DNA from: Parcubacteria group bacterium | GTDB taxonomy: Bacteria; Patescibacteriota; Minisyncoccia; Phycocordibacterales; Phycocordibacteraceae | DNA: 64,000 nt | Assembly (NCBI GenBank): GCA_028286825.1 | Contig: JAQBQV010000011.1 | Coordinates: forward strand, 12,920 to 76,919 | Direction of reading: 5' to 3' | Part shown: piece after piece, positions 16,474-32,957 of the stretch | Layout: each line of letters opens with the position of its first letter | How positions within the stretch are numbered: position 1 is the first letter of the stretch | The notes under the pieces: generated by a model | Seen by the model: only the letters and a program-made list of their open reading frames with translations | Told to the model about the DNA's origin: nothing | Databases searched by the model: none | Translations under genes and position numbers: made by a program

Positions 16474-17043
16474 TTATTTTCGCGAATACCTACCAATCAA
16501 TTTGGTTTCAGCGATTACAGATGGCTTAAGGGAGTTGAGCACCTCTTGTTTTGTCGCACCCGGCTGGAGAGTAAGTGTATCGCGGAGCGCAAAGAGCTTG
16601 AAAATATATCGATGCTCATGCGGCTCATATTCTGGAGGAGGGCACGGACCTGTGTAGGACTGCTCCCCCGTGCTCGTCGCTCCTAGTGTTCCGACGTTCT
16701 TGCCTTCCGGTATCTCGCTCGTTTCAGGCGGAATATTAAAAAGAGTCCAATGGTCGAAGCTATCGATTCCAAACTCTTTTTTCTTTTCCTCAGGAATGTC
16801 AGGGTCGTCCATGATAAGCACGAGCGACTTTGCCGCTTCAGGTACGCCACTAATGGTAAGCGGGGGTGACAGGCTCCTGTCGCCGTCACAGGTGTATTTA
16901 GCCGGGATCATCCCACCCTCCTCAAACGCTGGGCTAGTCAGTTCAAGGTTTCCATCCATTCTGGCCATTTTAACATTGCGACATATGATTTTTCGGTTAG
17001 AATGCGATAACGCCCTCCGCTCAAGGCTGAGGGCAAAGAACAT
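16474..17043 (-). CDS. YbhB/YbcL-family PEBP (phosphatidylethanolamine-binding protein).
   Basis: DDPDIPEE...FDHWTLFNIP...GPCPPPE...HRYIFKLFAL are PEBP motifs. Confidence 0.8.
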   Translation of the reverse strand: MFFALSLERRALSHSNRKIICRNVKMARMDGNLELTSPAFEEGGMIPAKYTCDGDRSLSPPLTISGVPEAAKSLVLIMDDPDIPEEKKKEFGIDSFDHWTLFNIPPETSEIPEGKNVGTLGATSTGEQSYTGPCPPPEYEPHEHRYIFKLFALRDTLTLQPGATKQEVLNSLKPSVIAETKLIGRYSRK

Positions 17044-17190
17044 TCCGCGGTAGCTCAGTGGTAAGCCGTCCGAACGGCTTCCTCCCGGCGCTTGCCTCGG
17101 ATGACTGAAAGCAGACTTTCACTCATCACTCGGCGCGCTTGGTAGTAGAGCGGCTCGCAGAAAACGAGTGAGAGCATTTAGAATCGTAGT
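17044..17190 (+). pseudogene. Decayed tRNA copy. It has the tRNA-Asn 5' end plus degenerate D/anticodon-arm-like sequence and no matching 3' acceptor strand.
   Basis: The first 20 nt (TCCGCGGTAGCTCAGTGGTA) are identical to the 5' end of the downstream tRNA-Asn. Later GGTAGTAGAGCGGCTCGCAGAAAACGAG resembles its D/anticodon arms. No cloverleaf can be closed. Confidence 0.4.
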
Positions 17191-17195
17191 AACAT

Positions 17196-17267
17196 TCCGC
17201 GGTAGCTCAGTGGTAGAGCGGCTCGCTGTTAACGAGTTGGTCGTAGGTTCGAATCCTACCCGCGGAG
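17196..17267 (+). tRNA. tRNA-Asn(GTT).
   Basis: Manual cloverleaf fold. Acceptor TCCGCGG/CCGCGGA, D arm GCTC-AGTGGTA-GAGC, anticodon arm GCTCG-CTGTTAA-CGAGT with anticodon GTT, T arm GTAGG-TTCGAAT-CCTAC, discriminator G. No CCA is encoded. Confidence 0.85.
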
Positions 17268-18962
17268 CAAAGTTTGGAAATGAGGTGCAGAAGCCTGGAA
17301 AGACTCTTGATTATCAAGGGTCTTTTTAGGTTCTAACGACTTCAAGAGCGCCCGCTGTGAGGTAACTTCGTTTTCGATGAGTAAAAACGGATGAAGCTTG
17401 TGTATGCTGAGTTTTCTATCCTTTAGTGTCATGTTCGAGCCGATGGTAGAGAATATAGTCCTCTTCTTTCTCAAGTCTCCTGTATTGAAATGATGCAGGG
17501 CGAATGCGCAGAATTTGAATGTTCGTTCAGCCGCAGCTAGCGACTGATCAAGTGTGTCTCGCGTAGAAGCTAATTGCTTTTCAGCTTGATCGCGATCAGC
17601 GACTATTTCCGACTTTAGCTTCCTAAATTCCTCTGAGGTATATAACTCGTGATTAGTGTTTTGCGGTGAGGTATATTCGCGGTGAAGATTCTTAAGACGC
17701 GTTTGGCAAGACTCATACACGGACTCGAGAGACTTGCGGGCTACACCTTCTTCTTTTCCAAAATGCTTCTGCTTATCCGCTAGGTAATCGAGAGCCAATG
17801 CCAAATAGTCTTGGTCTATGTTGATCTTCATGAGTTCCTCGGCAAACTGAGTTTCGAGTTCCTCAAGGCGAATAGTCTTCTGGCTGCATGTGCGGTCCTT
17901 CTTCTTAGTACAGCGGTAGTACGTGTAATGAAGGACAGTCGGATTATGCATTGAAGATATGTCTACCGAACACTTTGGACAAGCGGTCTTGTTTTCGTAC
18001 GCGAATTTATGCTTACACACCGAGCAAATGAGCTGGTGTTTATCTTCAGCCGTGATCATTGAATCGCACTCTCCACAATGAATGAGGCCCGTATATGCAA
18101 AGGTACGAGTCTTCGGTTGCGGTTTACCTTTCTTGCCTAAGAGTGTCTGCGCTCGCCAATACTCTGCTTCAGTGATCATCGGGTCATGATTTCCCTTAAG
18201 AAGACGCTTCTCTCCTGTTTCCGGGTCTATCCATGGGAAGTAACCGTAGTAGAAAGGGTCGCTAAAGATTTTATACACATGGCTCATGGTAAGTGGATGA
18301 CCACCTATCCTGCGCCGCTGAAGCGTTCGAAGACCCCACTGCTCATTGGCCATACTTCGTATTGATGACACAGAATAAGTGCCGCTCAAGAACATATCCC
18401 ACATTCGCCGCACGAGGTCGAAACGATCAGGGTCACTCGCTATAGTTTTATTACCCTTTTCGATCCCTACGTTTAGGTATCCAATAGGGCCACCTGAAGG
18501 TCTCCATCCTCTTATAGCTTTACCGTTTAAACCGCGTTTAACATTCTTTGATAAGCGCATTACATAATCAGTTGCTCTGCCTCCCTCGATGCTCATGAGG
18601 AGACCTGCGTCTTCGGGATAGTAGGAGCGGCTCGGCGTTTTAATAACCTTGATAACTGCTTTTTGGAGCATCCATTGAAGTCGCCCGTTATCGATAGGGT
18701 TGCGAGACAAACGGTCAATGTCCCAACATAGAAGTGCGTCTGCCTCACCAGCTTCAATGCGGTCGAGCATAGCGCCAAATACGAGTCTACCAGGGTCTTT
18801 TGCGCTGCGTTCTTCAATGTAGGGTGGTCTCACCAACAATAGTCCTTCACGCTCAATAATTACGCCTAGAGCCTTAGTTTGGTCCCCTATCGAGGCAATC
18901 TGGCGCTGACTGTCCTCCGAGCTCTTACGAGCATATATGAAGTATTTTGGGGTCGTGTTCAT
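17256..18962 (-). CDS. Large serine recombinase (phage-integrase type).
   Basis: An N-terminal resolvase catalytic domain (YARKSSEDSQRQ), a recombinase domain, a Zn-ribbon (CGECDS...CSVC...CPKC) and a C-terminal coiled coil. 568 aa. Its 3' end overlaps tRNA-Asn by about 12 nt. Confidence 0.85.
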   Translation of the reverse strand: MNTTPKYFIYARKSSEDSQRQIASIGDQTKALGVIIEREGLLLVRPPYIEERSAKDPGRLVFGAMLDRIEAGEADALLCWDIDRLSRNPIDNGRLQWMLQKAVIKVIKTPSRSYYPEDAGLLMSIEGGRATDYVMRLSKNVKRGLNGKAIRGWRPSGGPIGYLNVGIEKGNKTIASDPDRFDLVRRMWDMFLSGTYSVSSIRSMANEQWGLRTLQRRRIGGHPLTMSHVYKIFSDPFYYGYFPWIDPETGEKRLLKGNHDPMITEAEYWRAQTLLGKKGKPQPKTRTFAYTGLIHCGECDSMITAEDKHQLICSVCKHKFAYENKTACPKCSVDISSMHNPTVLHYTYYRCTKKKDRTCSQKTIRLEELETQFAEELMKINIDQDYLALALDYLADKQKHFGKEEGVARKSLESVYESCQTRLKNLHREYTSPQNTNHELYTSEEFRKLKSEIVADRDQAEKQLASTRDTLDQSLAAAERTFKFCAFALHHFNTGDLRKKRTIFSTIGSNMTLKDRKLSIHKLHPFLLIENEVTSQRALLKSLEPKKTLDNQESFQASAPHFQTLLRG

Positions 18963-19090
18963 AGCAGGCTGTGACTTATCGTAACACCTGAAAGATGGCA
19001 GTTATTGCTAGGTAATATCATCTTGCCGAATTGCCATTCTTTATTTCCCAAAGGGAATGAATTGAATTTGGTAATTTGGCAAAACATATA

Positions 19091-20284
19091 TTAAGAAGGT
19101 TCAAATAAGCTTGCCAACTCCACTTGAGGGTAACTAATGTCTCCTTCGGGTAACGACTCCACAAGAAAATATTCATCGGTCCTCCCCTTCTTTCTCCTGT
19201 CTATTAGCTTGCTGACCAAGAGGTCCCTCAGGGCCTCTCTTACATTCCTTTGCCCGATTTTCTTCTGTGCATAAACTATTTGGATAATGTCAGGCGTCAC
19301 TTTGGACTCTTCCTTAAGTATCTCGAGTATCAACTCCATCGCCTCTTCTTTTTTAGACTCTCGATCATCAACCTCACCAGCGAAGCGTATCAACGTAAGT
19401 ATCTCACCGGACTCGGCTATTGTGTCCGTCATCTCTACACAAAACGCATCAATCTCTTTACCGAGACGGTTCTTACGCTGGTATACCGATATTTTCTCTC
19501 CCTCTTTCTGCATCATGAGTAAGACTTCGACGCTCGCAGTCTTATCCTGGCTACCAAAGAGGTGCTCTTTTTTCGGTATTTTGCCCTCAAAGTTACTTGG
19601 TTTTCGGAAATGGTCGAGCCAAATTATACATACATCACGTTCCTTCAGCGCCTTGAATCGGCTGAATAGAGCTCTGACCTCTTCGGCTTTTTCTTCCTTT
19701 AATCCACCGGCAACAGATCGAAAGGTATCGATGATTACAACATCAAATCGGTTCTCGATGATATCGTCAACAAGATTCTGTGCAACGTCCTCCTTAGTCA
19801 AATTCAGTTCATCAACGGGCCAAATTGTAAGGTTATCGCTGTCCACGAAGCCAAGTTGACGTCCACGGCGCTGCAGCTCGCTTTTCGCATTCTCAGCATC
19901 GATATAAAGCACCTTACCCTGCAATGTAATAAACCTCTCATCATCAAGAAAGTTTGTTCCCATAGCAATACTACGCGCAAGTTCAAGTGCAACCCATGTT
20001 TTCCCTTCACCAGATATCGCAGCCAGAATGACCGAGCCTGCTCGCGGGATTAAGTTCGCGACTCGCCATCTATCTGTAGGGAATGTCATCGCATCGAGCT
20101 CGCTCCACCGAAGATATTTCTTCTCAGGTTCAATTTCAATGGCACTAATGCTTTTGCCAACATTCTTTGGCACGAGACGCTCTCGGCCTTCAAAGGTCGC
20201 TAAGTCTCCCCAATACGCGTCTTCATCCCTTGATTCCGGATCCATATATAATTCGGTACTTGCCGCCGCAGGATCGACATGCAA
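19091..20284 (-). CDS. RecA-fold AAA_25/RepA-like ATPase with a C-terminal winged-helix-like domain.
   Basis: Walker A (AISGEGKT) and Walker B (VLYIDAE, VVIIDTF) motifs with plasmid RepA/DnaB-like architecture. Confidence 0.6.
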   Translation of the reverse strand: MHVDPAAASTELYMDPESRDEDAYWGDLATFEGRERLVPKNVGKSISAIEIEPEKKYLRWSELDAMTFPTDRWRVANLIPRAGSVILAAISGEGKTWVALELARSIAMGTNFLDDERFITLQGKVLYIDAENAKSELQRRGRQLGFVDSDNLTIWPVDELNLTKEDVAQNLVDDIIENRFDVVIIDTFRSVAGGLKEEKAEEVRALFSRFKALKERDVCIIWLDHFRKPSNFEGKIPKKEHLFGSQDKTASVEVLLMMQKEGEKISVYQRKNRLGKEIDAFCVEMTDTIAESGEILTLIRFAGEVDDRESKKEEAMELILEILKEESKVTPDIIQIVYAQKKIGQRNVREALRDLLVSKLIDRRKKGRTDEYFLVESLPEGDISYPQVELASLFEPS

Positions 20285-20373
20285 ATTCGCCTGTGAGTAT
20301 CTGCTCCATAAGGCGGCTTATTTCTAGATACTGTGCCAACTCTTCATCTGACAGGCTACTGCCCCTGAGCGCC

Positions 20374-20631
20374 TTACTTACTGTCTGCAACTGTTCTGGT
20401 TTTAATCCTACTGATGTGTATCCCTTCATATATTGAATGTACTAATGCTATTAAGTGTTCGAAGTATTCGAGAGCAAGGTCATCTGATAGGTCCTCCCCC
20501 GTCTTCAGGCGGTGCATTTGTTTATATCGCTGTAGATAGAGTTGTTTATCGACCATAAAAGTAAAACCCACTATTTCCCTGACAGGCCACCGAATGTCAT
20601 CGGGTCTGTCGGGAAAGCAGGGGGCTTTCAC
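20374..20631 (-). CDS. Hypothetical small protein.
   Basis: 85-aa ORF inside the element. It overlaps a 68-aa ORF (20223-20429); only one of the two is likely real. Confidence 0.3.
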   Translation of the reverse strand: MKAPCFPDRPDDIRWPVREIVGFTFMVDKQLYLQRYKQMHRLKTGEDLSDDLALEYFEHLIALVHSIYEGIHISRIKTRTVADSK

Positions 20632-20792
20632 GAAGTGACATTCGGTATCCTCAACGAAAACGGCGGACTTATCGGAGTAATAGCCGTAGCATTACTCAAA
20701 TAAGTCCACCGTTATTCATCAGGGACTACTTAACTGTACCTGGTGCAAATAATTTGTATCTCCCCAGGTCGAAAAAAGGCGGTAGCTAGGGT

Positions 20793-21080
20793 CTAAGTTG
20801 CACCTATTAACGCTACATCAATTATGGGCGGCGGAAGAGGCTGTATCGGAGTGCCGAAAGAGCCACTGATTTCTGTAGCTTGTATTGCCTTCCCCCACGA
20901 ACGGTCAAAAAGCTCTCTGGCGGCAGCTACATCGCCGTTTTTTGCCTTTACGATGAGCGCCTCTGCAATGGGCTGTATATCTTTCATGAGCAGCTCTGAG
21001 AAGAGCTTACGAGCCTCCTCCGCGTTCTTTGCCGCGAAGCCTGGCTTACGCCCAGATCCTAATCTAAAGCCGCCTCTCAT
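20793..21080 (-). CDS. Hypothetical small basic protein, possibly DNA-binding.
   Basis: 95 aa with an N-terminal MRGGFRLGSGRKPG Gly/Arg-rich segment. Confidence 0.35.
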   Translation of the reverse strand: MRGGFRLGSGRKPGFAAKNAEEARKLFSELLMKDIQPIAEALIVKAKNGDVAAARELFDRSWGKAIQATEISGSFGTPIQPLPPPIIDVALIGAT

Positions 21081-21305
21081 AGATGATATGAATCATTAAA
21101 ATCAATATAATTAAGTCTACTCCTCTCGACCTATTTTGCCTCCCCCCTGTGGAGACCGTATGCTATCGTTCGAGATAGAAGGACCTAAACCTGTCGGCGT
21201 TGGCCGGCTTGCATGGTTCGAAATCGCAGAACACAGAAACCCCGTCATCAGGGGCGTGTTCTGCGTTATAGGGGGAAACTCCTATAGGGCCGAAAGGCCC
21301 ACCTG

Positions 21306-21653
21306 GTGGCGGGATTTGTGTTTGCCTCAACCCTCCACCGGTATTACCTATCATCCAAAACCATGTCGATCACGAGCCTGCTCAAGAGAACATTTGGACC
21401 GAAAGAACCTACCTATATCGACTGGGATAGAGTTACAGAGCTTCTTCCCGATATAAACGACAAGTGGCTTACTGCATACGAAAATTTACTGAAGCAGTTC
21501 AGGGAATATGAATATATTGACCCAAAAACGATGCCCATGGCATTTAAAGACAATATGGAATTTATGCTAGGCATATCTCTGTCAGAAAAACAGACACAGA
21601 AGTTTATTTGGACTTGGCTTGCGGGTCCGAAACAGTCTATTAATCGACCATAA
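21306..21653 (+). CDS. Hypothetical protein.
   Basis: 115-aa ORF. The start may be the internal Met (MSITSLL). Confidence 0.35.
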   Translation: MAGFVFASTLHRYYLSSKTMSITSLLKRTFGPKEPTYIDWDRVTELLPDINDKWLTAYENLLKQFREYEYIDPKTMPMAFKDNMEFMLGISLSEKQTQKFIWTWLAGPKQSINRP

Positions 21654-21662
21654 CCTTCAGAT

Positions 21663-21884
21663 ATGATTAGCCGAACAAGAATCCTTGTACTGGTTACTGT
21701 CAGTTTTCTCCTCGTACCAGCTATCATGTGGTTACTTCTAGAAGTACTCTTCAATCCCTGGTTTATCCACTTTATATTCTTCGGGTCAGTAGTTACGTCA
21801 GTGGTTGTTGCCTGTGTTTTGTCAGCCCTACCATTGCTGCTGTCTGTGTGGTACACAGCGACGCAACTCAAGCGCAAAATGTAA
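21663..21884 (+). CDS. Small membrane protein.
   Basis: 73 aa with two TM helices. Confidence 0.3.
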   Translation: MISRTRILVLVTVSFLLVPAIMWLLLEVLFNPWFIHFIFFGSVVTSVVVACVLSALPLLLSVWYTATQLKRKM

Positions 21885-22273
21885 CTGTGACCCCCTCAAT
21901 TTTTTCAAAGAATCTCAAAGAAATAGTCAAACTTTGCTTTTTTTGTGGTGTGGTCTGGCTAATGATTCAGGGCGGCCTCAATAATGGCAGTGCCGGAATT
22001 TATTTCATCTCACTCTTGATTGGGTTACTACTTTACGCTGCTTATGGTGAAGGTATTGCCAAAAAATAGTCTTCAACAGAGTCGACACAGTGTTGATTCG
22101 TCAACGTCAACGTAAAAATTTTGCGAGTCTAGGCGCCCGTCGGTTCACGCGGTTAAGCTGACTCGCATGATAGGTAGGACGAGGTGAGGGTACCACTTTC
22201 GATTATTAAGCGGACGCTGTGAGAGCTGTCTTCAGGGCAAGATTAGGCGTATTATGGCGGCACAGCGCTATTT

Positions 22274-22468
22274 ATGGATACTTTGCTCGTATTTATTCTC
22301 ACGCCTTTATATTGGGTCTGGAAGATTATCTGCTTTGTCATTGGAAGTGCATGGAAGCTAGTCCATGACATAGCAAAAGGTGTATATGGCAAGTTCATTA
22401 GCTGGATTAGTGCCATTATTTTCTTCGGAATGCTTACCTGGATCGTCCAACTGATTGCGAGTAAATAA
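22274..22468 (+). CDS. Small membrane protein.
   Basis: 64 aa with two TM helices. It lies directly upstream of the 433-aa ORF. Confidence 0.35.
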   Translation: MDTLLVFILTPLYWVWKIICFVIGSAWKLVHDIAKGVYGKFISWISAIIFFGMLTWIVQLIASK

Positions 22469-22473
22469 TAGGT

Positions 22474-23775
22474 ATGGGTCCAGTGATTATCTTCGATAAG
22501 TCGACACTCGAGAGCTTAAATCCTGATGAGGCTGTCTGGCTCGATCAGTTCTATTTGTCGAACATCACTCCTCTTTTTTTCGTCGAAACACTCGCAGACC
22601 TTGAAAAAGACATGCGCTCAGGCCGATCACCGGAAGAGGTCGTAGGTAGTCTTGCCTATAAAACACCGGATTACAGTTCTAAACCGAACGCGCACCATCG
22701 AGATCTTATGTCTGGTGAATTATTTGGGGGCGCTAAGCTTGATCTCACATATGGGCGACCTCATATCACCGGCGGAAAGTCGGTAGCATTAGGAAGCGGA
22801 ACAGGCGTTTTATTTGAACCCTCGCCAGAAGAAGAGGCTTTCCAGAGGTGGCAGGACCATCGTTTTCTAGAACTTGAACGATATCAAGCTAAGCAGTGGA
22901 GAGCTGCTCTATTGGGTGTGAACATGGAGCTTCAATACAAAGTCTTTCAGGCTTTCTTCCCACTCGGAAAGCCAAAATCTCTACATGATGTAAAGAGATT
23001 TTTGAACTTTTACATTGAGAGTCCAGATCAAGAAAATTTACTTACTTTTGGCTTGGGGATGGAAGGCGTGACGGAAGCAGGGCGAAAAGAGGTGCTATCT
23101 CGCTGGAGTGCCGAGGGTAAGCCGCGAATCCAGGAGTTTGCACCTTATTTCACTTACATCTTCTCTATCGATTTCTTTTTTGGTCTCGCTATAGCTGCGG
23201 ACCTCATCGGACGCGGACGCCCGTCTCATAAGGTTGACCTCGCGTACTTATACTATTTGCCGTTCTGTATGGTATTTACCTCGAATGACAAGCTACATGC
23301 CGAGCTTGCCCCATTCTTTTTGCGCGCCGATCAAACCTTTGTGCCAGGACGTGAACTGAAGACAGACTTGGCAAAGTTAGATCAGCACTACAGCACTTCA
23401 ATCACACCTGAACAGAAGGAAGAGGGGGTTGTAAGTTTCGCGTCACGACCGCCGAAAAGCGATGAGTTTATTACGACCCGCCTCTGGGATAAACATATGG
23501 GTACTAAGTGGCGCGAATATGAATACAAAATGCGCCCCCAACCTGACAGTGAACTTCTCAAGAAATTCCGTGATGAGATTCGCAAAATGGAGAAAGCTCC
23601 GGAGATAAAGCCTCTGTCTGGATCAACATTAGATGAGGCGGCGGCCATGGTCATGCGTCGCATGGTGAAGGGCCATAAAGGTAAATGGCGGCGTTTCCCT
23701 CCAGAGGTCATGAATCGTCGAAAGAACTCGGAGGGAGAATGGGAAGACATCCCTCCGGAAGAGCTCATTCACTAA
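22474..23775 (+). CDS. Hypothetical 433-aa protein, first gene of a coupled pair.
   Basis: Long ORF with no recognised motif. Its stop lies 3 nt before the next start. Confidence 0.55.
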   Translation: MGPVIIFDKSTLESLNPDEAVWLDQFYLSNITPLFFVETLADLEKDMRSGRSPEEVVGSLAYKTPDYSSKPNAHHRDLMSGELFGGAKLDLTYGRPHITGGKSVALGSGTGVLFEPSPEEEAFQRWQDHRFLELERYQAKQWRAALLGVNMELQYKVFQAFFPLGKPKSLHDVKRFLNFYIESPDQENLLTFGLGMEGVTEAGRKEVLSRWSAEGKPRIQEFAPYFTYIFSIDFFFGLAIAADLIGRGRPSHKVDLAYLYYLPFCMVFTSNDKLHAELAPFFLRADQTFVPGRELKTDLAKLDQHYSTSITPEQKEEGVVSFASRPPKSDEFITTRLWDKHMGTKWREYEYKMRPQPDSELLKKFRDEIRKMEKAPEIKPLSGSTLDEAAAMVMRRMVKGHKGKWRRFPPEVMNRRKNSEGEWEDIPPEELIH

Positions 23776-23778
23776 AAT

Positions 23779-24522
23779 ATGGCCACTTGCCGTCTGTGTC
23801 TCGCAGAGAAAGATCTTTGCAAAAAGTCACACATCATACCGAATTTCATGTATAGGGAGCTTTTTGACGAAAAACATCGCCTGGTAAAGGGAACACCGAT
23901 CGTTCCTGGCTCGAGACAAGACATGCAAAGTGGTGAGTATGAAAGCGATATCCTATGCGCTGACTGCGATAATCGAATCATAGGAGGCTATGAAGCATAC
24001 GCCAGTAAGGTGCTTTACGGGGGCAAAGTACCCGTGTCTACGCAGCACATCAAACGAGCTGAAGATGGTCTCGAGATCACAATTGTGACTGGTCTCGACT
24101 ATGTACGGTTCAAACTTTTTCTCCAATCTCTACTTTGGAGGTCGAGTATATCAAGCAAGGACTTTTTCTCGGCAGTTAATCTGGGCCCGTATGAAGAGAA
24201 GTTACGGATAGCGCTCGTTACCGGTGACCCTGGTCCAAGTGACAGTTTTCCGTGCATAGTAAATAACTATATTAGGACTGGTCTCCCTCATGGAGTAATA
24301 GCCGCCCCCCGTGAATCCCGCTTTATAGATGGGAAACGCATTTATACATATGTTATAGCTGGAATGATTTATATTTTTCATATTACCGAAAGAGAGACCT
24401 TTGACTGGATCTTGGAGGCTGCCGTCAATGAAAACGGCGAGATGCGGATCCCTCACATGTCGCAAGGGACGACGGGGGCATTGTTTAATAAACTTCTTGG
24501 CGCAGACATTTTCGAGACCTAA
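23779..24522 (+). CDS. HNH-like nuclease-motif protein, second gene of the coupled pair.
   Basis: CRLC...KSHIIP...CADCDNRI resembles a CxxC...H...CxxC-N HNH zinc-finger layout. Confidence 0.45.
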   Translation: MATCRLCLAEKDLCKKSHIIPNFMYRELFDEKHRLVKGTPIVPGSRQDMQSGEYESDILCADCDNRIIGGYEAYASKVLYGGKVPVSTQHIKRAEDGLEITIVTGLDYVRFKLFLQSLLWRSSISSKDFFSAVNLGPYEEKLRIALVTGDPGPSDSFPCIVNNYIRTGLPHGVIAAPRESRFIDGKRIYTYVIAGMIYIFHITERETFDWILEAAVNENGEMRIPHMSQGTTGALFNKLLGADIFET

Positions 24523-24641
24523 AACAGCAGCTATAACGAAAAAATTTTGTGCGTACGCACGCTCGGTGGTTTGATGGCGTCGGCTGACTGGCATGGTGGT
24601 GGTTGGTCAAACTAATTCTGGTACATGAAATGTACTCTTCT

Positions 24642-24672
24642 CGGCGCTAATCCAAGTTCTAATAGCCTCAGC
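24642..24672 (+). repeat. Junction box, variant class (CCAAGTTCTAATAGCCTCAGCAGTGCGGAGC).
   Basis: Near-identical to the copy at 31997. It resembles the tRNA-Asn 3' end. A small hairpin follows, then TTGACA (24773) -N16- TATACT. Confidence 0.6.
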
Positions 24673-24840
24673 AGTGCGGAGCCGATTGAGCAAACAAATA
24701 AGCCCTCTGGGGCTTTTTTGTATTCGAGCGAGGCTCCGATGGGAAGGCTTTGTTTACCCGCAGAGCAGCTAGTTGACATAATCCTGACTTTGTTATACTA
24801 TTAATAGTGGCAATCATGCCACTCACCTTTGGAGATATGT

Positions 24841-25029: not shown

Positions 25030-25229
25030 TTTCGTCGCAACGACGAGGGAAAGGACAACCGTCCCAACTTCCCTCCTCGGCGCGGCGATTCTTTCTTTTC
25101 ATAAACAGTTCCCGGCATTTTTTATGATTTATATCGATCCCATACCTCCACCCACCCGGCTATAAATCCCTACCCTAGAGGGGTCTCAAATCAGCTCGGG
25201 CACACAGTAACTTCCCTCTCTACTTCTTT

Positions 25230-25260
25230 CCAAACTCTAATAACCTCAGCAGTGCGGAAC
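25230..25260 (+). repeat. Junction box, variant class (CCAAACTCTAATAACCTCAGCAGTGCGGAAC).
   Basis: 25/31 identity to the 24642 box. A degenerate canonical box lies upstream at 25141-25162. Confidence 0.5.
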
Positions 25261-25494: not shown

Positions 25495-25508
25495 ACTCGA
25501 CTCATAGT

Positions 25509-25550
25509 CGCCCGACAGAGCCCCGGCTCCTGTCGGGCGACTCTTTTATG
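25509..25550 (+). terminator. Type-A intrinsic terminator (CGCCCGACAGAGCCCCGGCTCCTGTCGGGCG plus T tract).
   Basis: Perfect 8-bp stem with a palindromic loop, followed by CTCTTTTAT. Confidence 0.7.
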
Positions 25551-25561: not shown

Positions 25562-25588
25562 GTTTGAACATCCTCCACCCAGCGGAGC
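25562..25588 (+). repeat. Junction box (GTTTGAACATCCTCCACCCAGCGGAGC).
   Basis: Canonical box class. The downstream promoter is weak (TAAAAG-N17-TATACT). Confidence 0.65.
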
Positions 25589-25628
25589 ACAAAATAAAAG
25601 AAGTACTGACTCTGTTATACTTTTACCA

Positions 25629-26066
25629 ATGGTTGATAAGGAGACATTAGAAATAAAAGTACCTCCCCTACCACATGGCGTTTTGGATAAATTGGAGGAT
25701 AAAGACTTGAACGAATTATACCTTGGTTTAGATAGCGAGCTCGATAAAGCGGCAGAGCATCGAAGAAGAACTGTTAAAAAATTAATGGCTGGTTTTCTTT
25801 GGTTCATTAATTCACTTTTGTTTTTCAGCATAGGTCCTACTGATGCGCTGATGCAAATTTGGTCACTGGCAACGATGGGTTTGTTGCTTGTACTTTTCGG
25901 TAACACTCAGATCTCTTCGTATCTGGGGCCTCTCTGGCCAATAGCTGGAAGATTTGGTCAGCGTATCGATAGGCCGACTCCGCCAGTAGTGTTAGTAATC
26001 TTTGGCTGGTTATTATTATTTCTCGTATTATCAATTTTTAGCATCATTTTATATCAGAAGGGCTAA
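25629..26066 (+). CDS. Membrane protein with 3-4 TM helices (cassette 3).
   Basis: About 146 aa with hydrophobic helices (FLWFINSLLFFSIG, LATMGLLLVLFG, VVLVIFGWLLLFLVLSIFSII). Confidence 0.5.
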   Translation: MVDKETLEIKVPPLPHGVLDKLEDKDLNELYLGLDSELDKAAEHRRRTVKKLMAGFLWFINSLLFFSIGPTDALMQIWSLATMGLLLVLFGNTQISSYLGPLWPIAGRFGQRIDRPTPPVVLVIFGWLLLFLVLSIFSIILYQKG

Positions 26067-26111
26067 GTTGAAGCAGTTCGAAAATCATCCAGCCACCTGA
26101 GCCAGATAAAT

Positions 26112-26345
26112 TTACTTCCCAGAAGACAATGACTTCCCTTTAGGTTTATATTCGACCTTCCACGTCAGACCCGGTTTTACCCCAGCTATAGCTGGCAATA
26201 GATGGTTAAGCAGTTGTTCCGCTGTCATCTGAAATTTATTACCTTTCGCAGAAACCTTGACCCATCCATCTTTATCTCGAACGTATTTTTCTGTAAAGTT
26301 TTTTGTACCCATCGATATTATATAACTGTCATTTGTTAGCTTCAT
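26112..26345 (-). CDS. Hypothetical Lys-rich 77-aa protein, in opposite orientation within the array.
   Basis: Protein-like composition. It is flanked by a degenerate box (26075-26102) and box 4. Confidence 0.3.
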   Translation of the reverse strand: MKLTNDSYIISMGTKNFTEKYVRDKDGWVKVSAKGNKFQMTAEQLLNHLLPAIAGVKPGLTWKVEYKPKGKSLSSGK

Positions 26346-26401
26346 ACCGCAACATTACATCATAAATACCTAATAATTACGGACGAATTATTCTGAAAAC
26401 A

Positions 26402-26429
26402 GGTTCGAACGTCCTATAGCCAATGGAGC
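26402..26429 (+). repeat. Junction box (GGTTCGAACGTCCTATAGCCAATGGAGC) plus promoter.
   Basis: TTGACT (26434) -N17- TATAAA follows 4 nt downstream. Confidence 0.7.
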
Positions 26430-26511
26430 AAATTTGACTAATTAGACATTTTATAATATAAAGCAGTTCAGCTACTAGTTTTTCTGTTCACCATATCTGC
26501 GAGGAATCGAA

Positions 26512-26922
26512 ATGACCATTCCTGATTGTCTGTTACCGATTCATGACTACATAACAAGCGAGCTGAGGGAAAATCATGAACTTCTCTGCCTTTCGGATGC
26601 CCCTGATGTCAAACAACAGTTTGACGAAATGGAAGATGATTTCGACGATGTCGGAGGTGATCCTGATTTTGACGCTCGGGCTTTTATCAACTCGAGCTAC
26701 GAATACAAGATAGAATGTTGCCAACAAGCGCTGCGAGCGTTAACTGCAAGCGAGTATGATGTAGTCATAACCCACCTGAGTGTCGAACTAACTGCTCTAC
26801 GTGCGTACAGAGACGAGGTTACTAAATATGTCTCAAACATGAGCGGTCGTCAGCGCGAGCGGCTAGCAGCTAAAATTGGCCGACTCGAGCAATATTTACG
26901 AGTACTTGCAGAACAAAAATAG
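26512..26922 (+). CDS. Acidic hypothetical protein (cassette 4).
   Basis: 136 aa. GAGGAA RBS. An intrinsic terminator follows directly. Confidence 0.55.
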   Translation: MTIPDCLLPIHDYITSELRENHELLCLSDAPDVKQQFDEMEDDFDDVGGDPDFDARAFINSSYEYKIECCQQALRALTASEYDVVITHLSVELTALRAYRDEVTKYVSNMSGRQRERLAAKIGRLEQYLRVLAEQK

Positions 26923-26930
26923 AACGACAG

Positions 26931-26975
26931 CCGCCACGAGGAAGAATGCTTCTCTCGTGGCGGTCTTCTTATTTC
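26931..26975 (+). terminator. Intrinsic terminator (CCGCCACGAG-loop-CTCGTGGCGG plus T tract).
   Basis: 10-bp stem followed by TCTTCTTATTTCTT. Confidence 0.7.
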
Positions 26976-26985
26976 TTATACACCA

Positions 26986-27068
26986 GTTCGAACATCCACT
27001 ACCACAAAAGAGTACTTTCATTTCTCTAACCTCGAGTACGAGCAAGAGAAATTGGTCGCCAGCGGAGC
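26986..27068 (+). repeat. Split junction box. GTTCGAACATCCACTACCA, then a 54-nt hairpin insertion, then CCAGCGGAGC, plus promoter.
   Basis: Insertion 27005-27058 begins CAAAAGAGTACTTTCATTT and ends AAATTGGTCG, with an internal stem TTTCTCT/AGAGAAA. TTGACG (27075) -N17- TATATT follows. Confidence 0.7.
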
Positions 27069-27195
27069 TAAGGGTTGACGATCATTTTTTTAAGTGTTAT
27101 ATTTGTACTGGAACCTTAGTGCCATCCTATCTCTGGTAAGCGTAAAAGCTTCACCCGTTCCGCCCAACCCTGGGCGGCTTACCAAGGAGACAACG

Positions 27196-27450
27196 ATGGA
27201 CGAGATGTTCTTCATTACCGACCCCGAAGATCCGAGCAAGATTTATGCTGGTCCGCTCTCGAAAGAGGCGACTGGTGTAAAACTGACGGAACTTCTGCGA
27301 CCGCTTCTCACTGGCAGCGACTTCCACTTCATACGAAGTGCTGGAAGCTATCAGAGCATCGACGAGGTGCTTGAGGAGTGTCGTAAGGAACTGAGCGGCT
27401 GTCTGTATTTCGACGTCGTTCCAGCTTCTGTGGTTGGTAATCGAGCCTGA
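27196..27450 (+). CDS. Hypothetical 84-aa protein (cassette 5).
   Basis: AAGGAG RBS. Starts MDEMFFITDPEDPSK. A terminator follows. Confidence 0.5.
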   Translation: MDEMFFITDPEDPSKIYAGPLSKEATGVKLTELLRPLLTGSDFHFIRSAGSYQSIDEVLEECRKELSGCLYFDVVPASVVGNRA

Positions 27451-27460
27451 ATGTCAGGCA

Positions 27461-27497
27461 GTCCCCGCAAATCATCGCGGGGACTTTTGTTTTTATA
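27461..27497 (+). terminator. Intrinsic terminator (GTCCCCGC-loop-GCGGGGAC plus TTTTGTTTTT).
   Basis: 8-bp GC stem plus T tract. Confidence 0.75.
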
Positions 27498-27508
27498 CAT
27501 GAATGCAA

Positions 27509-27535
27509 GTTCGAACATCCTCTAGCCAGTGGAGC
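27509..27535 (+). repeat. Junction box (GTTCGAACATCCTCTAGCCAGTGGAGC) plus promoter.
   Basis: TTGACG (27540) -N17- TATTAA. Confidence 0.75.
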
Positions 27536-27624
27536 AAATTTGACGATACAGAAGACTTGTGTTATTAAATCTGTTGGCAGGTCTTACAGACCTTTTTGAC
27601 GTTGCACAATTGAGAGGAATCACG

Positions 27625-28206
27625 ATGACAGAAGAAACTTGGGAAATTATCGGAAAGGGTTCAAACACAATCGCAAGTAAGTGTGTGCGATACCTCTTGA
27701 GATACGCATGGCTTCGGGTCGCTCAAAGCAATGTGAGAAAGGAGTTCTTTGTCCTGCTAAAGAAAGTCATTACGCAGGAGACTATACAAAAGCTTTCACC
27801 AAAAAAAGACACGCAGGAGACTGAAGTGCCGCTCTATTTCGTCACTATGCTGTCTGGAAGTAAGGCGAAAATTCGTCTTGTCCTCGGCACGGATGAACTA
27901 GCACACAGCAACGTCGCTCTTATCAAGTGCGAGTGCGAAAAGACCGACGGTTGGGAGAACTTTTCGATTTCGAACTATAATTACGATGAGTGGTTCATCG
28001 ATACTGAGGCGATTAGCCTATCGCTTGATACCGAACGCATGGTATTTATCGACACAGAAGGAAAAGCAACGAGGGAACCAATTCTGGAGATCGCTGAAGA
28101 GGGCGAAAAAATTATCATCACTGCGCCAATAAAGGGAATCACGAACGCCGAGTTCGATCAGGCATTCGCAAAAAAGAAAAAGGAAAGGAAGGTCGCCGCT
28201 TCTTGA
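27625..28206 (+). CDS. Hypothetical 193-aa protein (cassette 6).
   Basis: GAGAGGAA RBS. Starts MTEETWEIIGKG. Lys-rich C-terminus. Confidence 0.55.
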   Translation: MTEETWEIIGKGSNTIASKCVRYLLRYAWLRVAQSNVRKEFFVLLKKVITQETIQKLSPKKDTQETEVPLYFVTMLSGSKAKIRLVLGTDELAHSNVALIKCECEKTDGWENFSISNYNYDEWFIDTEAISLSLDTERMVFIDTEGKATREPILEIAEEGEKIIITAPIKGITNAEFDQAFAKKKKERKVAAS

Positions 28207-28213
28207 ACTATTA

Positions 28214-28258
28214 ACCCCTTACAGAGGATGAATCCTCCGTAAGGGGTGATTCATTTCC
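28214..28258 (+). terminator. Hairpin (CCCCTTACAGAGG-loop-CCTCCGTAAGGGG) with a weak T tract.
   Basis: 12-bp stem. The downstream tract is TGATTCATTTCC. Confidence 0.45.
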
Positions 28259-28269
28259 ATACAAAACAA

Positions 28270-28296
28270 GTTCGAACAACCTCTATCCAGCGGAGC
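28270..28296 (+). repeat. Junction box (GTTCGAACAACCTCTATCCAGCGGAGC) plus promoter.
   Basis: TTGACA (28303) -N17- TATACA. Confidence 0.75.
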
Positions 28297-28395
28297 TAGG
28301 GGTTGACAGAGGTGGTGTTGTATGCTATACAAGAGTTAGGCCAAGCCGTATAGGCTTGATGATGAACGTTGTTAAACCACTTCGTGGGAGTTCCA

Positions 28396-28797
28396 ATGCG
28401 CGTTAAAATGAAAGTAAGGGTTTGCTTCGCTGACGCCGAGAAAATGTTTGCCGCTGGAGTTCGAGCGGCAGCGCTCGATTTGGTCACGCTGGCCATGACG
28501 TCAGCAAGCGCCTGGTGGTTTTTGTCCACCGACATGCCAGACTTTCTGGTGCTCGAGAAACTGGCGCTCGCAGTCGGCTGGTTTCTGGTGTTCGTTGCCT
28601 TATGCGGTGGCCTTCCGGAAGTTCTCAAACAGGTGTGGCCCTACTGGCAACTCGCACTTCAGATCTACTGGCGCGAAAGCAGAGTCGGACAACTTTCGCT
28701 CTTCCCTCACGGTGACCATGAAGTCCAAAGGCCGTATGGGCCGGTGGGACGGGAACCGAGCAAGAAAGCGGTGGCGCTAAAGCCCGCCATCAACTGA
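28396..28797 (+). CDS. Small membrane protein with two TM helices (cassette 7).
   Basis: GGGAG RBS. Starts MRVKMKVRV. The + orientation is preferred over the overlapping minus ORF 28296-28628 because it fits the promoter/terminator framing. Confidence 0.45.
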   Translation: MRVKMKVRVCFADAEKMFAAGVRAAALDLVTLAMTSASAWWFLSTDMPDFLVLEKLALAVGWFLVFVALCGGLPEVLKQVWPYWQLALQIYWRESRVGQLSLFPHGDHEVQRPYGPVGREPSKKAVALKPAIN

Positions 28798-28816
28798 CGC
28801 TGACATCAATCATACA

Positions 28817-28858
28817 CACCCGACAGAGCCCCGGCTCCTGTCGGGTGTTCTGTTTTTA
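28817..28858 (+). terminator. Type-A terminator (CACCCGACAGAGCCCCGGCTCCTGTCGGGTG plus T tract).
   Basis: Same hairpin as the copy at 25509. Confidence 0.7.
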
Positions 28859-28871
28859 ATGGACGACAGTG

Positions 28872-28898
28872 GTTCGAACATCCTCTACCCAGCGGAGC
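28872..28898 (+). repeat. Junction box matching the consensus exactly (GTTCGAACATCCTCTACCCAGCGGAGC) plus promoter.
   Basis: TTGACA (28903) -N17- TATGAT. Confidence 0.8.
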
Positions 28899-29023
28899 AA
28901 AATTGACATAGTATGTAGAATGTCATATGATATTTCTGATTCTTAGTCCGTACGGCTAAGTCGCCCCATGGGGTAAGGACGTTATCTGTGCGTCGTCTCA
29001 CGGAGATTAAAAGGAGAGCTCGA

Positions 29024-29458
29024 ATGAGCGATGGAAACGGTCAGTGTTATCAATTGGAATCTGGACCCTCACGAGAAGATTTCTTCGATAGTTTGCGTCT
29101 AGGAATGGAGGCCGAGTCATTACGGGTGCTGGAATTTTGGTGCACACATCAGCGCCCTACAGACTGCACAGGGCGAATCATGTACATCGAAATTCAAGGC
29201 ATTCATCGTTACGGCGAAGAAGAAGACAAGTGGTTCTTCTTCGGTCGTGAACGGGCCTTGATTCTTCTTCCAGATGGTCCCATGGAGGGTTGGAAAGCTC
29301 CCAGTATGGATTTCGCTTTCGGCACGTGGGACACCCAACATCGGAAAGGAGCGGTGATGATGCACAAAAACGGTTCTTTTTTCACTGCACCCATGACTGA
29401 GCGCGAAATTTTCGAACGCGCATACCCCACAGCTAAGAAGCGACCAAGAAGACGTTAA
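29024..29458 (+). CDS. Hypothetical 144-aa protein (cassette 8).
   Basis: AAAAGGAGAG RBS. Starts MSDGNGQCYQLESG. Confidence 0.55.
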   Translation: MSDGNGQCYQLESGPSREDFFDSLRLGMEAESLRVLEFWCTHQRPTDCTGRIMYIEIQGIHRYGEEEDKWFFFGRERALILLPDGPMEGWKAPSMDFAFGTWDTQHRKGAVMMHKNGSFFTAPMTEREIFERAYPTAKKRPRRR

Positions 29459-29461
29459 ACG

Positions 29462-29503
29462 CCGCTCGCCAGATACCGCGTCTGTTCGAGCGGTTTCTGT
29501 TTT
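29462..29503 (+). terminator. Type-B terminator (CCGCTCG-loop-CGAGCGG plus TTTCTGTTTTT).
   Basis: Same stem family as the copy at 33979. Confidence 0.65.
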
Positions 29504-29515
29504 TACTCAGAACAG

Positions 29516-29583
29516 GTTCGAACGTCATCCACCCATCGGAGCCCTCAATAGATTTAGTTCGAACTTCCTCGACCGATAGGAAA
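29516..29583 (+). repeat. Two tandem junction boxes (GTTCGAACGTCATCCACCCATCGGAGC, then a degenerate GTTCGAACTTCCTCGACCGATAGGAAATACC).
   Basis: Second copy 14 nt after the first, with no ORF between them. Confidence 0.6.
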
Positions 29584-29641
29584 TACCCCTTCATAAAAAC
29601 CTCATAGCATACACACGCGTTAGGGTGTACTGTTCCTGTAC

Positions 29642-30655
29642 ATGAACCTACCTAGTTATGGGTTAGATCCTCAGCTTTCAGAAGCAATTTTCGGTACTAT
29701 CCGTGAACCCATGGTCGTACTGAGCGAAGACTTACACGTCATTGTCGCAAGTCGCGCTTTTTATGAAAAATTCCAGACGCCTTTTGGTGATGCTGAAGGT
29801 AAACTGTTCTACGAACTGGGCAATGGGCAATGGAACGTCCCTCGCTTGCGTACCTTGCTTGAAGAGGTAATTCCAAAAAAGAGTGTCGTTCGCGACCATG
29901 AGGTTGAGCATGTGTTCGACCATCTAGGGAAACGAATCATGCTGATTAATGCCCGTGAGATTGTATATGAGAACGGACTAAAAAAAATGCTTCTCTCCAT
30001 CCTTGACGTAACAGAGCTGCGTGCTGGCGAGGAACACAAGCTTCAATTAATGGAGCAAAAGGATACTCTTCTGAAAGAAATGCGGCATCGCATTGCCAAC
30101 AGCCTTCAGCTTATCGCGAGCATTATTCTACTGAAAGCACATACAGTCCCTTCCGAAGAAAGCCGTATGCATCTTGAAGACGCTCACGACCGCATTCTCT
30201 CTATTGCTACCGTACAGAGAAATCTGGATCCAACTGACTCAGGTGCTGAAGTACCAATCACTGAATACTTAAGGACGCTCTGTTCGAGCCTCGCAAAATC
30301 AATGATTGGAGGGCGAAAGCCGATACAGCTTGTTGTGCAGGGAGATGCGAGTACGGTTACGCCCGATGAGGCAATCAGTCTGGGGCTCATGACAACCGAG
30401 CTCGTCATAAATTCACTAAAGCACGCATTCCCATCTGGCGAAGGCAACGTGACCGTGAGTTATCACACGCTAAAGACTGACTGGATTTTGGTGATCAAGG
30501 ACGATGGAGTTGGATATTCCTTAGCGGTAAACAATAAGGAAGACGGGCTCGGGACAAGCATAATCGAGTCCCTCGCAAATCAAATGAAGGCCACCATTAA
30601 GCGAGAAAGTTCACACCTGGGTACGACTGTTTCTGTTGGGAGCGCCGCGACCTAA
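29642..30655 (+). CDS. Cytoplasmic PAS-HisKA_2-HATPase sensor histidine kinase.
   Basis: An N-terminal PAS-like domain, an EMRHRIANSLQLIASIIL HisKA_2 H-box, and a C-terminal ATPase (ELVINSLKHAF ... GLGTSIIESL). Confidence 0.75.
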   Translation: MNLPSYGLDPQLSEAIFGTIREPMVVLSEDLHVIVASRAFYEKFQTPFGDAEGKLFYELGNGQWNVPRLRTLLEEVIPKKSVVRDHEVEHVFDHLGKRIMLINAREIVYENGLKKMLLSILDVTELRAGEEHKLQLMEQKDTLLKEMRHRIANSLQLIASIILLKAHTVPSEESRMHLEDAHDRILSIATVQRNLDPTDSGAEVPITEYLRTLCSSLAKSMIGGRKPIQLVVQGDASTVTPDEAISLGLMTTELVINSLKHAFPSGEGNVTVSYHTLKTDWILVIKDDGVGYSLAVNNKEDGLGTSIIESLANQMKATIKRESSHLGTTVSVGSAAT

Positions 30656-30670
30656 TCCTAAGATACGTAC

Positions 30671-30697
30671 GTTCGAACTTCCTCTAGCCAGTGGAGC
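30671..30697 (+). repeat. Junction box (GTTCGAACTTCCTCTAGCCAGTGGAGC) plus promoter.
   Basis: TTGATA (30705) -N17- TATATA. No terminator separates the kinase stop from this box. Confidence 0.75.
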
Positions 30698-30787
30698 ATG
30701 GGGGTTGATATGTAATAAGAATTGTTTTATATAAAGAAAGGCGAGTCTCTTCAGGCTCACAGTTCAAACTTCCATTAGGAGAAAGCT

Positions 30788-31192: not shown

Positions 31193-31218
31193 CATCATCA
31201 GTCTGAAAGGAATCGACG

Positions 31219-31401: not shown

Positions 31402-31411
31402 TTTTCATCAA

Positions 31412-31452: not shown

Positions 31453-31464
31453 ACGAACGAATCA

Positions 31465-32953: not shown

Positions 32954-32957
32954 CAAC

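Follow-up and report, generated by a model that had tools for sequence, protein, structure and literature searches.

In the 64,000-nt stretch of a Parcubacteria/Paceibacteria genome analysed here (contig JAQBQV010000011.1, positions 12,920 to 76,919; hereafter the window, numbered from its first letter), positions 17269-24682 very probably represent a 7.4-kb integrative element at the 3' end of a tRNA-Asn(GTT) gene, a reading to which we give a probability of roughly 85%. The element is probably able to replicate as a circle, its large serine recombinase (LSR) belongs to a clade specialised on tRNA genes, and attP, the attachment site of the free form, lies within the LSR reading frame. As far as sequence goes, comparison with related loci establishes both ends of the element and the position of attP inside the gene; it also shows that a relative exists as a circle, that the whole clade is associated with tRNA genes, and that a close relative has a tRNA-Asn without LSR. 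The prolyl-tRNA synthetase (ProRS) encoded in the window matches a protein from a MAG labelled "Parcubacteria group bacterium" at 100% identity, with Paceibacterota and Kaiserbacteria next among the hits. The G+C content changes from 0.50-0.55 upstream of the tRNA to 0.43-0.48 over the element and the adjoining part of the island downstream of it.

A search of the window with ARAGORN found one tRNA only, tRNA-Asn(gtt). The LSR gene ends inside it: its stop codon is the complement of positions 17256-17258, in the T-stem, and gene and tRNA overlap by 13 nt. The features that define the ends of the element are the following.

17196-17268, forward strand: tRNA-Asn(GTT), the integration target, intact when integrated (ARAGORN; an identical tRNA abuts an 83%-identical LSR in locus L042)
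17256-18962, reverse strand: LSR gene in its integrated, tail-less form, 568 aa (ORF, domains, homologues and model)
17243-17268, forward strand: B arm of attL, the host half-site formed by T-arm and 3' acceptor strand, GTAGGTTCGAATCCTACCCGCGGAGC (from sequence, compared with P arms)
17262-17268 and 24676-24682, no strand assigned: GCGGAGC, the sole block common to attL and attR (attL/attR comparison)
17269-17300, forward strand: P' arm of attL, the element half-site, (C)AGTTAGGA... (corresponds to the P' side of attP in circle L046 and to related attL sites)
17289-17334, forward strand: hairpin and U-run inside the 3' end of the LSR gene (-26 kcal/mol, z = -4.3)
24607-24681, reverse strand: detached 3' end of the LSR gene, LRTAEAIRTWISAEKSTFHVPELV and stop, in the LSR frame across the junction (frame conserved)
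24650-24682, forward strand: attR box, P arm (ATCCAAGTTCTAATAGCCTCAGCAGT) and shared GCGGAGC, the whole box being ATCCAAGTTCTAATAGCCTCAGCAGTGCGGAGC (conserved in relatives)
24683-24722, forward strand: B' side, the presumed original tRNA trailer and intrinsic terminator, stem 24700-24715 and T-run (same layout after attR in relatives and at the unoccupied tRNA-Asn of L135)

An initial annotation of this DNA had proposed an integrative element at tRNA-Asn, with the first tRNA-3'-like box as a plausible distal att site. This is borne out by the conserved arm and tRNA tail of the box, by the circular attP of a relative and by a relative without LSR. The details required some correction. The box is a real attR, conserved in 11 relatives, and lies at 24650-24682 rather than 24642-24672; the short core repeat expected at both ends exists as the 7-nt GCGGAGC, at the extreme 3' end of the tRNA; and the overlap of the LSR with the tRNA, put at about 12 nt, is real and 13 nt long.

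Versions of the attR box (at most 7 mismatches) were identified in 11 related loci, all oriented as the tRNA and ~6.8-11.6 kb from the tRNA end where both ends are present; because they recur in the same orientation, the box is not a chance match. Its left 20-26 nt are conserved irrespective of the host, and the final 5-7 nt vary with the tRNA that is targeted (Asn sites have CGGAGC, a Ser site CCTCCGC and a Gln site CCAGC). An A-rich spacer and then a terminator hairpin stand to the right of the boxes in the related loci. The box at 24650-24682 thus has the sequence organization of the attR of a serine integrase, a P arm of the element joined to host B', and the terminator after it (stem 24700-24715) is taken as the original terminator of the tRNA. 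In eight loci with attL/attR pairs, the two sites have just 5-8 nt in common, e.g., CCAGC (tRNA-Gln) and CCTCCGC(A) (tRNA-Ser). As attL and attR of the window share only GCGGAGC, we place the crossover at the extreme 3' end of the tRNA. The reconstructed junctions are attP, ...GCCTCAGCAGTGCGGAGCAAAGTTTGGAAATGAGG... (24630-24682 joined to 17269-17320), and attB, ...TCCTACCCGCGGAGCCGATTGAGCAAAC... (17230-17268 joined to 24683-24730). The locus therefore has the layout of a tRNA-gene genomic island (the Islander signature), with an intact tRNA (17196-17268), a displaced GCGGAGC plus terminator (24676-24722) and the LSR between them. The displaced tRNA fragment is 7 nt long, below the reach of repeat-based island finders. 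Hairpins equivalent to that at 17289-17334 stand after the tRNA in related attL sites, and this hairpin is probably a replacement terminator supplied to the tRNA by the element.

Two other placements of the ends were considered. A crossover in the T-loop, raised by a 19-nt tRNA-Ser tail recurring in L019 and by the palindromic GTTCGAAC, is rejected for the clade because the conserved arm reaches the last 5-7 nt and only those follow tRNA identity. The mapping of the att sites gave no support to an element carrying its own whole tRNA, an idea based on the identity with L042, which begins 5 nt before the tRNA, and on pseudo-tRNAs upstream. As regards the latter, the leader and 5' end of tRNA-Asn are duplicated exactly over 25 nt (17039-17063 equals 17191-17215), after which come a degenerate stretch resembling a tRNA (identity of 17137-17169 to 17205-17237, 82%) and a possible degenerate box, GTCCGAACGGCTTCCTCCCGGCGC. 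These tRNA-like copies (17039-17190) are absent from L042 and L135, and a crossover at the tRNA 3' end cannot account for them. Comparable copies occur in L023 (11753-11960, reverse strand), where two tandem 93-nt units, each a leader plus the degenerate 5' two-thirds of tRNA-Asn, lie upstream of a functional tRNA-Asn that abuts an LSR.

The free form of a relative provides an independent view of attP. An LSR 72% identical to that of the window (P0007) is encoded on two independent assemblies, L046 (10,012 nt, ENA) and L047 (9,987 nt, Logan). The two contigs are circular permutations of one another at 100% identity, their ends overlap by 55 and 30 nt, respectively, and they thus represent a 9,957-bp circle. 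Its attP, ATCCATGTTCGAACAGCCTCAACAGTCCGGAGC joined to CAGTTAGGAATTGAGG (also given as ATCCATGTTCGAACAGCCTCAACAGTCCGGAGC joined to CAGTTAGGA...), has on one side a P arm like those that integrated relatives have at attR, and on the other a P' arm like those after the tRNA at attL of these relatives. As this is the predicted P/P' joint, the assignment of the sites is confirmed independently. The circle also encodes a 639-aa AAA_25 protein, a 1,309-aa protein without family match and a small GIY-YIG protein.

Host and element arms appear to follow a common rule. In the tRNA arm the T-loop motif GTTCGAA lies 16-22 nt from the terminal C, and in the P arms of the window (as GTTCTAA), of the 11 relatives and of the natural attP, GTTCGAA/GTTCTAA lies 21-27 nt from it. 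For an A118-type integrase, the motif of the zinc-ribbon domain is 5 bp nearer the centre in attB than in attP (Rutherford et al., 2013; PMC3783163). Judged from sequence, the window, its relatives and the circle all have the distal motif 5 bp further out in attP. This points to the T-loop box as the sequence read by the zinc-ribbon domain, and to the arm of the element as a mimic of the tRNA with a 5-bp spacer.

The attachment site is also part of a gene. The opposite strand of the P' arm (17269-17300) encodes the final element-encoded residues of the LSR. The last residues of the protein, R-G, and the stop are antisense codons of the tRNA, as may be one or two preceding L residues, depending on the position of the crossover. 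Because the stop codon lies to the left of the shared block, R-G-stop is host tRNA sequence. Over the reconstructed attP the LSR frame runs for ~24 codons (LRTAEAIRTWISAEKSTFHVPELV and stop in the window, LRTAEAIRTWIMAEKGSFYVPELV in L044, LRTVEAVRTWIGSTEHMFYVPQLA in L010), and a similar continuation of the frame was found in eight further loci, for a total of 11 integrated elements. The overlap of LSR and tRNA is not incidental, because the ORF crosses the recombination junction. The detached tail ORF of the window is without frameshift. Over the first 11 tail codons of the 11 integrated elements and the attP of the circle, minority bases number 13, 6 and 39 at codon positions 1, 2 and 3, so the variation is mostly at third positions.

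A minority of database homologues keep the tail, for example P0007 (589 aa), which ends ...IPNWLRTVEAVRTWIADYKGDYYVPELV / ...NWLRTVEAVRTWIADYKGDYYVPELV. The conserved tail consists of TVEAIRTWI, five variable residues and then (D)FYVPxL, and the free circle encodes a recombinase of ~590 aa. The long form reconstructed for the window would likewise have ~590 aa, residues 1-566 followed by RTAEAIRTWISAEKSTFHVPELV (the detached ORF minus its first L, which is residue 566, in GCGGAGC). For structure we relied on an AlphaFold model of P0007 (mean pLDDT 76) rather than of the window LSR. In this model the crossover codons, W565-L566-R567/T568, lie in the middle of the final helix (550-579), so that integration would remove half of the helix and the conserved terminal motif, leaving R-G-stop.

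With attP inside the LSR frame, integration would leave the tail codons (about 22-24) at attR, and the LSR gene would end in two codons read from the antisense strand of the tRNA (R-G), with its stop codon within the T-stem. The tRNA would stay whole and would gain a trailer and terminator from within the LSR gene. As the frame extends across attP, integration changes the protein, and the free and integrated states are predicted to encode different enzymes. The tail swap may alter the activity of the recombinase or its direction.

The association with tRNA genes extends over the recombinase clade. More than 1,900 database homologues of the LSR were identified at E <= 1e-10, the best 120 of which are 55-83% identical and, where named, mostly from Patescibacteria. 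From the alignment of this family we fetched 41 genome loci and counted a tRNA or tmRNA as adjacent if it was convergent with the LSR and no more than ~110 nt from its stop. Such a gene was present in 22 of the 41, representing nine acceptor types.

Adjoining genes found more than once in the 22 loci: tRNA-Asn 11, tRNA-Ser 2, tRNA-Gln 2, tRNA-Arg 2
Adjoining genes found once each: tRNA-Trp, tRNA-Lys, tRNA-Leu, tRNA-Val, tmRNA

C-termini encoded by antisense tRNA (e.g., ...WLRG, ...LLRG) occur in ~100 of the 120 best homologues. There are also longer antisense read-throughs, e.g., ...WLRDQDSNLEPTP, in which D-S-N is the antisense of the T-loop GTTCGAATC. Adjacency and antisense-coded ends together indicate that the clade as a whole is associated with tRNA 3' ends, and that by these comparisons it is specialised on the 3' ends of tRNA and tmRNA genes. 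Closely related LSRs adjoin different tRNAs and have different cargo. In the LSR models P0005, P0016, P0018, P0021, P0022 and others, the annotated ends (...RDQDSNLEPTP) are tRNA read-through and differ by host, not by enzyme. A further observation concerns the far end of these loci. After attR in L044 (4070-4125), L004, L023, L073, L077, L091, L097, L104 and L106, the tRNA trailer is a long palindromic terminator, and beyond it lies an inverted sequence resembling a tRNA tail (TTTTGCTCCGCGGA or GCTCCGACGGA), perhaps a tRNA or pseudo-tRNA in convergent orientation that uses the same terminator.

The enzyme itself is a large serine recombinase by domain content and fold. Pfam matches are Resolvase (PF00239, residues 8-152, E 3e-15), Recombinase (PF07508, residues 180-276) and Zn_ribbon_recom (PF13408, residues 313-377), and the LSR matches one PHROG integrase family. 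The catalytic R12 and S14 are invariant across 25 homologues, and the window LSR retains every family-invariant residue. In the P0007 model, strands at 295-365 and 511-520 flank a helical hairpin (384-491), i.e., a coiled coil inserted in the zinc-ribbon domain. A Foldseek search with this model matched the full-length integrases of SPbeta, phiC31, Bxb1 and A118 (LI) with E values down to 6e-20, at just 13-18% sequence identity to these solved integrases. The other genes of the element are listed here.

19091-20284, reverse strand: AAA_25 / RepA-DnaB-like helicase, 397 aa, putative replication module (Pfam E 3e-30; PHROG primase/helicase families)
20374-21080, reverse strand: small ORFs of 85 aa and 95 aa, the latter with a weak DUF5681 match (candidate regulators or directionality factors)
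22474-24522, forward strand: coupled two-gene cargo, 433 aa and 247 aa (ORF list, Pfam, PADLOC, PHROG)

This inventory agrees with the initial annotation, which had described a 568-aa serine recombinase with resolvase and recombinase domains, a Zn ribbon and a coiled coil (the last predicted in the model of the 72%-identical homologue), followed by a RepA/AAA_25-like ATPase, small ORFs and a coupled cargo pair. The AAA_25 protein resembles the helicase portion of phage primase/helicases, and its gene also adjoins the LSR in L043, L044, L045 and L047; it may replicate the circle. The cargo ORFs (22474-23775 and 23779-24522) are separated by 3 nt. The cargo has no match in Pfam or PADLOC; its sole match is that of the 247-aa protein to phrog_19960, a PHROG family of no assigned function. 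Genes for capsid, terminase and tail were found neither in the element nor in the relatives examined.

Whether the locus varies among relatives was judged from two genomes. L042 has a syntenic host region, and its 83%-identical LSR overlaps an identical tRNA-Asn by 13 nt. L135 encodes a ProRS 89% identical to that of the window in the same gene order, and its tRNA-Asn is followed by a 20-nt spacer and a terminator, without LSR. A tRNA-Asn with no LSR at the proximal position, relevant to the empty site that the initial annotation had suggested seeking, thus occurs in a relative. The locus is not the same in all relatives, and the LSR of the window is not a pseudogene but intact, with its catalytic residues. 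The window element is likely still functional, because the LSR keeps the invariant residues and the tail ORF has no frameshift, and the window copy may well still be able to excise.

Several points weigh against the element as we describe it. The L135 contig ends 76 nt past the tRNA, so its LSR-free status holds for the proximal position only, and its trailer has weak similarity to the attR flank of the window (0.55% of random windows score as well). Neither an attP junction nor an empty-attB junction of the window element was found. The sole other copy is Logan contig L045, which equals 17246-24679 and ends at both att sites. We considered it as an excised circle and rejected this, because its ends do not overlap, the host arm is part of its left end, and the contig stops on the right where the 33-nt repeat begins. 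L045 is no evidence of a circle, because the box repeat at 31995 explains that right end. No recombination directionality factor was identified among the genes of the element. The 2-nt crossover can be placed only to within GCGGAGC, the overlap of attL and attR. GC, the sole dinucleotide common to Asn, Gln and Ser sites, is palindromic and alone would not set the orientation. Conservation of the P arm could in part reflect a constraint from DNA binding besides coding. Exact-sequence look-ups returned no match for the flanking PBP-family protein and, for a cassette protein, only the same arrangement in the same sample.

Downstream of the element, a same-strand island of unannotated genes extends to ~39.5 kb. 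It contains two further kinds of feature that resemble attachment sites.

25562-35967, all on the forward strand, facing as the tRNA: array of ~14 type-A boxes, GTTCGAACATCCTCTAGCCAGCGGAGC (repeat search; metagenome occurrence)
31995-32027, forward strand: second 33-nt P-arm box, identical to the attR box, with its own intact tail ORF that differs (...IRTWIQGEKGTYYIPNLV) and a promoter next to it (repeat search)

Units of the array have the order terminator hairpin, type-A box, TTGACA-N17-TATAAT promoter and single ORF. In most units the promoter begins 0-7 nt after the box, and nearly all the ORFs lack family matches. Read in the LSR frame, the type-A box encodes LRWLEDVRT with a stop 5-8 codons later, similar to the tails found in a different branch of the family (P0088, P0095, P0013); type-A boxes are therefore read as P arms of a sister type of element. 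We considered the units as decayed full elements and rejected this, as tblastn with the LSR, the helicase and other proteins of the element found no remnant elsewhere in the window. The box at 31995-32027 is the joint of an older unit and a possible alternative partner for excision. The element described here is the tRNA-proximal unit of a larger island of box-bounded units. In the simplest reading, each new arrival at the tRNA would push older units inward and so build the downstream array. The recombinase-less units may be moved in trans or may be trimmed remains.

We also scanned JGI metagenomes, in which 86 contigs carry the type-A box. Most occurrences look like attR with a terminator after the box; about a dozen have a promoter there, like the units of the window, and one lies within an ORF of >580 codons and so represents a tandem joint or an attP. 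In a set of 98 joints, nine left-hand units meet 2-3 different right flanks, and four right flanks meet 2-3 different left units. From these varied partners we conclude that the type-A box is a junction with varied partners in natural populations.

Smaller features of the island were also recorded. A degenerate third copy of the P-arm box, at 25229-25258, is, like the second copy, the joint of an earlier type-B unit and another possible partner for excision. The type-A boxes at 26986-27079 and 35522-35620 each contain an insertion of 56-59 nt (AC(C)ACAAAAGAGTACTT...GGTCGC) at one and the same point, between ...CTACC and CAGCGGAGC. The two insertions are related and may represent a miniature insertion that targets the box. 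A true tRNA-tail remnant is fused directly to a TTGACA-N17 promoter at 24738-24801 of the window (TTTACCCGCAGAGCA) and at 3925-3965 of L044 (reverse strand; TCCTACCCGCGGAGCA), and at each place a promoter-bearing unit seems once to have been joined next to the tRNA. A terminator-like hairpin of 47 nt (CGCCCGACAGAGCCCCGGCTCCTGTCGGGCG and a T-run) occurs in four copies that are 79-91% identical (25501-25547, 28809-28855, 31404-31450, 31906-31952). Each copy lies where a different array unit ends, which suggests that the units have a terminal module in common.

It is conceivable, although we regard it as rather doubtful, that the clade and its P-arm boxes constitute a serine-recombinase gene-cassette system at tRNA genes of candidate-phyla-radiation bacteria, with integron-like function and different chemistry. 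Single-gene units with their own promoter and terminator, and lacking a recombinase, would enter and leave in trans at the tRNA end, and just the tRNA-proximal unit would be free to leave, with older units stacked inward. The LSR tail swap would then be a built-in switch of activity or direction, replacing a directionality factor or acting alongside it.

The island also bears on how large the mobile unit is and what it serves. The unit might exceed 7.4 kb, ending at the second box (32027) or spanning the island to ~36-39.5 kb, with 24650-24682 as an internal scar. The identical 33-nt box with its intact tail ORF is what one would expect in that case, recombination of attL with this distal box would release a 14.8-kb circle, and the same-strand island of unannotated genes continues to ~39.5 kb. 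However, relatives have 6.8-11.6 kb from attL to the first box and the free circle measures 9.96 kb. After the first box come a tRNA-type trailer and terminator, as expected of the original host flank, whereas a cassette promoter follows the second, and the units further downstream carry the different type-A box. We consider a larger unit unlikely. A fixed, domesticated chromosomal LSR that serves the downstream array, as an integron integrase does beside attI, would require no mobile element at all, and might explain why the homologues are unusually conserved (55-83% identity, >120 clusters) and nearly always lie beside a tRNA, here with an array of box-bounded units downstream. This we hold to be highly improbable, given that close LSRs lie at different tRNAs with different cargo, one relative is on a 9,957-bp circle, and the syntenic L135 lacks an LSR at tRNA-Asn. 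Moreover, the array boxes are mostly of the other type (tail LRWLEDVRT) than the arm of the window LSR, and the element itself separates the array from the tRNA.

A mobile element of the proposed size could also have lost its autonomy, as a decayed or satellite-type prophage remnant that no longer moves alone. The LSR, the helicase and the 247-aa protein match PHROG phage families, most of the small ORFs have no assigned function, and no excision product of the window copy was seen. This explanation appears very unlikely, because genes for capsid, terminase and tail are missing in the relatives examined as well as here, and because the element retains intact copies of the LSR gene, of the two att arms and of the detached tail ORF. 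We thus favour a 7.4-kb integrative element that ends at the first box.

An abundant clade of serine integrases as a whole targets tRNA genes, in bacteria whose genomes are tiny and for which few routes of gene exchange are known. The half-sites have a readable code, in which the host arm is the near-universal T-loop plus acceptor end and the arm of the element is the same motif displaced outward by 5 bp. Such a code offers a natural test of how structure is thought to govern site choice by serine integrases, and may help in developing integrases directed at conserved tRNA sequences. The intragenic attP could be a self-contained switch for the direction of recombination, and the array and its varied partners in metagenomes point to site-specific building of variable islands. 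Large serine recombinases are well known, as are integrase genes that span attP (in tyrosine recombinases, Mx8 and SSV). What appears to be new here is an attP in the frame of an LSR with a tail swap, the 5-bp offset of the T-loop motif in the arm of the element, and the array of promoter-bearing units with a second type of box.

Among known systems, the phage serine integrases (A118/LI, phiC31, Bxb1, SPbeta) have in common with the window enzyme the domain order, the fold and short att sites of two half-sites, and the distal motif of the element arm is likewise 5 bp further out than that of the host arm. Their targets are protein-coding genes or intergenic sites, in contrast to the tRNA 3' ends used here. 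To our knowledge, none of these phage integrases has attP inside its own frame, and our literature search, the coverage of which was incomplete, found no account of a serine integrase with an intragenic attP.

Location of attP within the integrase gene is shared with IntP/IntX of myxophage Mx8 and the "suicidal" SSV-type integrases of archaea. Integration alters the integrase in Mx8 and splits it in SSV, and an archaeal review describes self-disrupting recombinases as confined to archaea. Mx8 reportedly targets the 3' end of a tRNA gene. However, these enzymes are tyrosine recombinases with unrelated chemistry, so the likeness is an analogy of mechanism and not membership. Unlike them, the window LSR loses just its last ~22 codons and retains intact catalytic domains. 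tRNA genes are a classic target of tyrosine integrases, among them those of the pSAM2/SLP1-type elements of actinomycetes. Like the window element, the latter are ~10 kb, integrated at tRNA genes and able to form circles, and have their own replication gene. They also carry tyrosine integrases and genes for conjugative transfer, neither of which is present in the window element.

Integrons resemble the locus in having a recombinase beside the primary site and a one-directional array of mostly single, unannotated genes with a recurring site. They differ in their tyrosine integrase, folded single-strand attC and usually promoterless cassettes. In the window the recombinase is a serine recombinase located on the mobile element, each unit has a promoter (TTGACA-N17-TATAAT) and a terminator, and the boxes are P arms of a serine integrase with coding remnants rather than attC-like hairpins.

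The closest parallel is with the tycheposons of Prochlorococcus (Hackl et al., bioRxiv 10.1101/2020.12.28.424599), which also form tandem units separated by partial tRNA copies; newcomers are modelled there as pushing older material inward. The preprint reports a large serine recombinase in 27 of 937 tRNA-island elements of Prochlorococcus, the only precedent for LSRs at tRNA islands that we found in the literature. A survey of thousands of LSRs makes no mention of tRNA, and the initial annotation was right to call such targeting less usual for this kind of enzyme. The window shares with tycheposons a variable island proximal to a tRNA, replication genes and partial-tRNA separators. However, the defining enzyme of tycheposons is a deep-branching tyrosine recombinase and their hosts are marine cyanobacteria, whereas the sole recombinase of the window element is a serine recombinase; nor do the passages of the preprint that our search retrieved refer to an intragenic attP, a tail swap or a +5-bp mimicry by the arm. 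Thus, the window element works like a tycheposon and is not a member of that group.

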